Shown here in pieces: positions 10,955 to 11,436 of a DNA stretch of 64,000 nucleotides. Made by a program: the position numbers and the translations under genes. The stretch lies in the NCBI RefSeq assembly GCF_016903815.1, contig NZ_CP069973.1; one strand, written 5' to 3'. A model generated the notes under the pieces. The model had not been told where the DNA came from. It did no database searches and saw only the letters and a list, made by a program, of their open reading frames with translations. Numbering within the stretch: the stretch's first letter is position 1; each line of letters opens with the position of its first letter. The DNA is from Escherichia coli (GTDB lineage: Bacteria > Pseudomonadota > Gammaproteobacteria > Enterobacterales > Enterobacteriaceae).

Positions 10955-11436
10955 ATCCGGTGCGCCGTAAAACCCCGTCCTTCAGGGCGGGGATATAAGG
11001 CGCGGTTTTCCACCTGACCAGGTGTTTGCTGTTGTTCAATGTATTGGCGGATGACGGATATTGGCGCACCTCCGCAGCTACTGGCAAAATAGCCAGGACT
11101 CCACAAAACGCCTTTGTAGTAATACCTGACTGCAATATCTGGTCGATCTCGTCGCAGTCACCTACCCGATACGCCTTTGAGGCTGTTTACCAGACTGGAT
11201 ATCGCCAGTTTGGGAGGATAGTTAATTAACAAATGGACGTGATCTGGTTCGCCATCCATTTCAACCAGTTCAGCTTCAAAATCAGCACATACATCTGAAA
11301 AGTAAGTGCGTGGTTTTTCTGTCGCGTCATGGTCAAAAATCTGGCGTCGGTATTTGGGACAAAGACCAGGTGAACATGCATCAGGAAAACACAATGCCTT
11401 CCACGCCGGATATCGGTTTCTTTTTTCACAGACCAA
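10918..11436 (-). pseudogene. tnpA: IS200/IS605-family Y1 transposase TnpA, inactivated (in-frame TGA and anomalous N-terminal region)
   Basis: One frame reads ...CPKYRRQIF...DHVHLLINYPPKLAISSLVNSLKGVSGR-[TGA at 11158-11160]-LRRDRPDIAVRYYYKGVLWSPGYFASSCGGAPISVIRQYIEQQ...; HUH motif and C-terminal catalytic region present but split by one stop. Only TTG/GTG starts are available, and a neighbouring frame (RHCVFLMHVHLVF) suggests a further frameshift. Confidence 0.7.

Follow-up and report, generated by a model that had tools for sequence, protein, structure and literature searches.

The locus examined here raises the question of what kind of mobile element interrupts the lipoprotein gene yajI of Escherichia coli, how the damage in its transposase gene came about, and whether the element can still move. 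With high confidence, the reading developed below is that the element is a copy of IS609 whose tnpA is a pseudogene with four lesions, that these lesions are old alleles in circulation, and that the copy would be an immobile fossil in strain 7/2. The copy lies within a window of 64 kb, by which is meant the whole stretch of DNA analysed, and no further IS609 sequence was found elsewhere within that window. The local gene order is yajD, tsx, split yajI, nrdR and ribD. The interrupted gene codes for a DUF3251 lipoprotein of the SadB/YajI family and is split by IS609 into a C-terminal fragment (10547-10956, minus strand), placed by the RefSeq annotation of an identical record and by comparison with an intact yajI in another strain, and an N-terminal fragment (12704-12833, minus strand), placed by RefSeq annotation and an empty-site comparison. 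The junction between yajI and IS609 was found at 253 places in 253 of 5426 complete E. coli genomes. For the rest of the genome, the record of strain 7/2 (NZ_CP023820.1; human faeces, Sweden) was used, as it is identical to window positions 9400-64000 (54.6 kb) without a mismatch. In that chromosome, the segment at 1.60-1.77 Mb (dgcZ, marRAB, lsr, hipB, ydcO, hrpA) has the reverse of the K-12 gene order, which points to an inversion around the terminus region.

The element within yajI is a copy of IS609, a known insertion sequence that belongs to the IS200/IS605 family. Sequence matching IS609 is present in 5425 of the 5426 complete genomes, mostly at 95-99% DNA identity and at 98-100% to IS609 copies; the matches are annotated as tnpA plus InsQ/TnpB and several records name IS609. 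Over its whole length, the element is ~98% identical to copies annotated as "IS200/IS605-like element IS609 family transposase". Its boundaries were set by the empty yajI site and by the points at which the flanks diverge between loci. Since the uninterrupted yajI of strain ZLWT reads CTTTAT-TGAGC, with the hyphen at the insertion point, the element occupies 10957-12703 (plus strand, 1747 bp), directly 3' of TTTAT and without a target duplication; terminal inverted repeats are absent as well. The TTTAT pentanucleotide (10952-10956, plus strand) abuts the left end and is the putative target-adjacent motif (TAM) of the IS609 TnpB. At all four independent insertion loci (yajI, ytfB, ydcO and gltX), TTTAT precedes CCGGTGCGCC, and the last bases of the element, GATGTCAA, are common to the copies at yjfZ-ytfB, ydcL-ydcO and gltX-yfeD. 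Beyond the right end, the adjoining yajI flank (12704-12719, plus strand) matches the empty-site sequence after TTTAT with one single-nucleotide difference and may serve as a guide segment.

Each end of the element carries a subterminal hairpin, both predicted from single-stranded DNA folding. The left-end hairpin (10962-11003, plus strand) has the core CCCCGTCC-TTCA-GGGCGGGG and a folding energy of -17.3 kcal/mol (z = -3.4), and the right-end hairpin (12673-12694, plus strand), which reads CCACGTCC-TTCA-GGGCGTGG, is kept in all copies. The core CGTCCTTCAGGGCG is common to the two. At position 10998, copies with the native tnpA stop have a C that lets the outer stem of the left-end hairpin (GCGCCGTA/TACGGCGC) pair over its full 8 bp, while the window and most decayed copies have an A and one pair of that stem is broken. 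Between the ends, tnpA and tnpB point away from each other, and their start codons are separated by 7 nt. Hairpins at both ends, insertion at a fixed place 3' of a motif, the lack of target duplication and the divergent tnpA and tnpB are defining traits of IS200/IS605 elements; together with the absence of terminal inverted repeats and the coding of both TnpB and a Y1 HUH transposase, the gene for which is itself disrupted, they place the element in this family.

Members of the family move as single-stranded DNA by means of a Y1 HUH transposase, for which the end hairpins are the recognition sites, as known from work on IS608 and ISDra2 (PMC10055086). By the same route, an intact IS609 TnpA, a single-domain enzyme, would bind the left- and right-end subterminal hairpins on one DNA strand and would move the element by single-strand 'peel-and-paste' transposition. 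IS608 of H. pylori and ISDra2 of D. radiodurans encode homologous TnpA proteins with the HUH motif and a C-terminal tyrosine (E values of 1e-17 to 1e-19), and they resemble the window element in having subterminal hairpins and in inserting 3' of a short motif without duplication; the TnpB of ISDra2 is homologous too. The target motif is TTAC for IS608 and TTGAT for ISDra2. The window IS609 differs from both in its TTTAT target, its divergent tnpA and tnpB and its dead tnpA. A closer parallel for the target is offered by ISGst2 of Geobacillus stearothermophilus, whose TnpB2 has TTTAT as its TAM, and non-autonomous IS605 elements with tnpB only are known to exist (PMC10055086). The window IS609 is like ISGst2 in having TTTAT beside its left end, where the IS609 TnpB would use it as TAM, and like the tnpB-only elements in having no working tnpA in cis; unlike the latter, tnpA is present as a pseudogene.

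The tnpA pseudogene occupies 11014-11444 on the minus strand and would comprise 143 codons in its intact form. Its repaired translation scores 144 bits against the NCBIfam model NF033573 (cutoff 55) and matches solved TnpA structures of IS608, ISDra2 and Sulfolobus with E values of 1e-17 to 1e-20, and homologs of the protein carry PF01797. The HUH motif, His69-Val-His71 (11233-11241, minus strand), aligns with PDHIHLF of the solved chains, and the catalytic Tyr135 (11041-11043, minus strand), which sits in IRQYIEQQ, aligns with IKKYIEEQ. As the reference for lesions, the intact 143-aa IS609 TnpA of O157:H7 strain PV15-279 (WP_000604943.1; ytfB locus, TAG stop) was used. The O157:H7 element, located between yjfZ and ytfB, is 1748 bp as against 1747 bp, is ~98% identical and has the same ends, TTTAT and divergent layout; it has an intact 143-aa tnpA and a 402-aa tnpB, in contrast to the four tnpA lesions, four missense changes in tnpA and premature tnpB stop of the window copy.

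The first lesion is the one on which a sequence-only reading of this DNA had focused, an in-frame TGA (11158-11160, minus strand) that replaces the TTA codon of Leu96. Alignment with intact TnpA sequences bears out that it splits the gene between the HUH motif and the catalytic tyrosine, with the frame reading ...HVHLLINYPPKLAISSLVNSLKGVSGR upstream and LRRDRPDIAVRYYYKGVLWSPGYFASSCGGAPISVIRQYIEQQ downstream without a change of phase (minus strand, ...EPDHVHLLINYPPKLAISSLVNSLKGVSGR before the TGA and LRRDRPDIAVRYYYKGVLWSPGYFASSCGGAPISVIRQYIEQQQTPG after it). Any product ending at codon 96 would therefore lack Tyr135. The second lesion was hinted at in the same reading, where the stretch KKETDIRRGRHCVFLMHVHLVFV was seen to sit in a different frame from the one containing the TGA. 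It is out of frame because codon 30 lacks a base (ACC to -CC; 11356-11358, minus strand), and alignment with other IS609 copies places the missing base between window positions 11357 and 11358 (GTCACCAAA to GTC-CCAAA). The third is the loss of the start codon, also suspected earlier from the lack of a plausible ATG: the family ATG, from which the canonical protein begins MILWSVKKETD..., reads ATT in the window (11442-11444, minus strand), as seen when four to fourteen IS609 copies are aligned; the only starts on offer are TTG or GTG. The fourth, absent from the sequence-only reading as was a premature stop in tnpB, is the loss of the native stop after codon 143 (TAG to CAG; 11014-11016, minus strand). 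The proteins of relatives end here in ...QQQTPG/S, and the O157:H7 and Logan copies have TAG at this point; with the stop lost, the reading frame continues across the left-end hairpin and enters yajI.

The possibility that two small ORFs are the normal state of the family at this position was refuted by relatives in Salmonella, Photorhabdus, Proteus, Klebsiella and Yersinia, each of which has a single ORF of 138-146 aa ending in ...YIEQQQTPG or TPS. RefSeq flags the yajI-copy tnpA as "frameshifted; internal stop; incomplete". The tnpA of this copy is a pseudogene that cannot supply its own transposase, and the proposal that the element is non-autonomous is supported accordingly by all four lesions. 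Loss of the native stop is also seen in most E. coli IS609 copies, whose ORF runs on into flanking DNA. This accounts for the "missing C-terminus" flag that PGAP puts on most E. coli IS609 tnpA genes and for database IS609 "transposases" of 160-254 aa with tails of translated flanking DNA.

A non-autonomous element may still be mobile if a transposase coded elsewhere acts on it in trans. For the yajI copy this is unlikely, though several points speak for it. Both end hairpins are intact and near-identical to those of the copy with an intact tnpA, lesion-bearing tnpA alleles occur at several loci, and mobilisation in trans is believed to apply to most tnpB elements (PMC10055086). Conserved ends, however, would need a cognate TnpA, and a search of all three places with IS609 tnpA sequence and of the known IS609 loci found no intact IS609 tnpA in the genome of strain 7/2. 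The yajI copy has its four lesions; at ytfB, tnpA carries the TGA together with the stop loss, next to a tnpB of 402 aa; and a fragment at yedK has lost the left end along with the final portion of tnpA, in which the tyrosine helix lies. The search, which had been suggested in the sequence-only reading, thus gave three defective genes out of three and no intact copy. The yedK gene is listed in RefSeq as an intact 174-aa "IS200/IS605 family transposase" (WP_001347174.1), while it is really a 3'-deleted tnpA fused to unrelated sequence. IS609 is absent from gltX-yfeD and yfaV-yfaY in strain 7/2, where the sites are empty, and ydcL-ydcO holds IS200C with an intact tnpA in place of IS609. A second, identical IS200C tnpA lies between yodD and yedP. 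The intact IS200C TnpA shares only 30% identity with the IS609 TnpA, so that cross-recognition of the ends, and with it mobilisation of IS609 in trans by this protein, is unlikely. The A at 10998 also counts against mobility, as it breaks one left-end outer-stem pair present in native-stop copies.

Because all three IS609 tnpA sequences of strain 7/2 are defective, the yajI IS609 is predicted to be an immobile fossil that can neither excise nor transpose in this strain. No new insertions of the K-12 copy, which has the same TGA, arose in mutation-accumulation lines (PMC5009759). Across the species, 330 IS609 tnpA places are on plasmids, and an intact TnpA could arrive by plasmid or phage.

The age of the lesions can be read from how widely they occur. 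Alleles were counted in the 5426 complete E. coli genomes with queries of 31 or 32 bases, where a match had to hold an exact word of 28 bases spanning the variant. Taken together, these genomes contain about 7600 IS609 copies. The TGA at codon 96 was found at 3143 places in 2599 genomes and the TTA at 4459 places in 2531 genomes. The ATT start occurs at 1063 places (985 genomes), the deletion in codon 30 at 299 places (213 genomes), the native TAG stop at 1583 places (1411 genomes) and the premature TGA of tnpB at 93 places (93 genomes). In addition to the yajI copy, the codon-96 TGA is carried by the K-12-type ydcL-ydcO copy and by the second (ytfB) copy of strain 7/2. The ATT and deletion alleles are both found at loci other than yajI as well, for instance at gltX-yfeD, where copies in other strains combine ATT, deletion and TGA. 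The tnpA lesions are thus old alleles circulating among E. coli IS609 copies. As for the TGA, which had been taken for a recent point nonsense mutation, its presence in the K-12 copy and in 2599 genomes means that it is not a recent private mutation, and that view is not borne out. Only the premature stop of tnpB seems to be lineage-specific. The K-12 IS609 (ydcL-ydcO; insQ plus a tnpA pseudogene) shares the stop loss in addition to the TGA and is annotated with an "internal stop"; unlike the window copy, K-12-type copies keep the ATG and the frame, have a full-length tnpB of 402 aa and occupy a different locus.

The lesions are combined in different ways even at a single insertion site. Eight copies at the yajI site were compared and represent five haplotypes. 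The window and PEC011 have ATT, deletion and TGA; XJ6.1 has ATG, deletion and TGA; ST2747 has ATG and TGA without the deletion; GF43 has ATT and the deletion with TTA; and RIVM, SJC33 and 21AH057 have ATG and TTA without the deletion, together with another stop, at codon 76 (TAT to TAA). Among the ytfB copies, that of O157:H7 is intact, the SCEC copy has the stop loss only and the strain 7/2 copy has the stop loss and the TGA. For several pairs of tnpA sites, all four allele combinations are present. The tnpA segment of the window shares 99.6% identity with the gltX copy found in another strain, as against 97.5% with the ytfB copy of its own genome. Segments have apparently been exchanged between IS609 copies or between strains, which is the simplest reading of these mosaics, recurrent mutation being a further possibility. 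From the mosaic haplotypes in 14 copies we infer gene conversion as the route of spread, a pattern that recurrent mutation and homologous recombination between strains could produce as well.

The other gene of the element is in better condition. The tnpB gene (11452-12609, plus strand) encodes an RNA-guided nuclease of 385 aa and begins with a GTG 7 nt from the start of tnpA on the opposite strand. Its product scores 388 bits against NF040570 (cutoff 100) and matches ISDra2 TnpB structures with an E value of 4e-54 over residues 3-376. That tnpB is preserved, as had been stated, holds in so far as all conserved domains are kept, but the gene has a premature stop of its own. By alignment, a TCA codon has become TGA (12607-12609, plus strand), giving 385 instead of 402 aa with the loss of 17 C-terminal residues; the ancestral stop lies at 12658-12660. 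As homology to the solved structures ends at residue 376, no conserved TnpB domain is lost. Damage to tnpB is seen elsewhere too, with two internal stops in the gltX-yfeD copy of P19_598 and a frameshift in the yajI copy of GF43. The K-12-type InsQ/TnpB has CAYCG near codon 323, where all other copies have CACCG, so that a Cys of the first zinc-finger CxxC is replaced by Tyr. A literature search on insQ plus TnpB found nothing relevant.

Downstream, a probable scaffold for a guide RNA (omega/reRNA) spans 12587-12703 on the plus strand and overlaps the 3' end of tnpB and the right end of the element. Searches of this region against Rfam gave sub-threshold matches only, to RAGATH-18 (29.5 bits) and HgcC (24.9 bits), with E values of about 0.005; the copies are too similar to show covariation. 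RNAs derived from RAGATH-18 guide TnpB (PMC11061315), and the sub-threshold matches are consistent with a known TnpB guide-RNA scaffold (PMC11061315, PMC10055086). The nonsense base in tnpB, a C-to-G change at 12608, also falls inside the presumed scaffold. Following the homing model (PMC10055086), the yajI flank at 12704-12719 would direct the RNA to empty TTTAT-TGAG... sites, which would then be cut. Such empty sites would be generated only in the presence of a transposase.

The different fates of the two genes invite broader readings. Among nine copies, tnpB has a pN/pS of 0.33, as against 24 non-synonymous to 1 synonymous variant codons in tnpA. The tnpA ratio is read as relaxed constraint, with small numbers. 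Overlapping constraint was considered as a cause of the 24:1 ratio and rejected, variable sites being distributed 12:11:4 over the codon positions, which does not depart significantly from evenness (chi-square about 4.2, 2 df, p about 0.12). One such reading, which must be regarded as quite doubtful, is that the inactivating tnpA alleles (ATT, deletion, TGA and stop loss) have been gene-converted between loci while tnpB stayed under purifying selection. This would amount to a concerted silencing of E. coli IS609 in which modules of TnpB and guide RNA are kept, possibly with a host-level or defensive role. A related idea, that decay of tnpA and retention of tnpB reflect domestication of the TnpB-guide RNA pair by the host, is improbable. 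It could draw on the contrast between the pN/pS of tnpB and the 24:1 ratio of tnpA, and on the fact that tnpB is open in most sampled copies at vertically inherited loci. The pN/pS signal, however, can date from a time when elements were active, and tnpB itself is broken in P19_598, in GF43 and, by its premature stop, in the window, while the K-12-type protein has lost a zinc-finger cysteine to tyrosine.

Recoding has been considered as a means by which the damaged tnpA might still be expressed. In E. coli, ATT can initiate translation weakly, and a UGA followed by C is a leaky stop. The C_CCA_AAT that results from the deletion (11350-11360) is shaped like a -1 slippery heptamer, and the TGA is followed by C (11157-11160). 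With GTC CCA AAT before the deletion and C after the TGA, contexts are thus at hand for ATT initiation, a -1 slip on C_CCA_AAT and read-through of UGA-C, which together would give a deliberately low level of functional transposase. This scheme is highly improbable. Functional relatives have an ATG, a Leu codon at the position of the TGA and one continuous frame of 138-146 aa, with no recoding site conserved. Three recoding events would multiply to a negligible yield; the lesions are variously combined across copies, as expected for independent damage; and the K-12 copy, with TGA and stop loss only, showed no transposition (PMC5009759). The slippery heptamer and the TGA-C context are probably a coincidence, and a trace of full-length TnpA from the yajI copy by way of leaky contexts is formally possible.

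Finally, the notion that the stop and the frameshift are errors of sequencing or assembly in a tnpA that is really intact can be dismissed almost outright: the deletion does fall in a short homopolymer (GGG/CCC, 11356-11358), a typical error type, but it recurs at 299 places in 213 independent genomes and the TGA in 2599, at least 25 listed assemblies share the tnpA segment at 100% identity, the window equals its RefSeq record base for base, and the lesion alleles as a group are found in 93 to 2599 independently assembled genomes.

The yajI IS609 is therefore best described as a known element whose decay, too, is of a known kind and is marked as such in RefSeq. The value of the finding lies mainly in annotation, in that tnpA should be recorded as a pseudogene and the element as immobile, and the reading of the TGA as a recent mutation should not be propagated. 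Beyond annotation, the lesion mosaic at this one locus provides a small, clean example of sequence exchange between copies of an insertion sequence, and the mosaic at IS609 could be followed at population scale.
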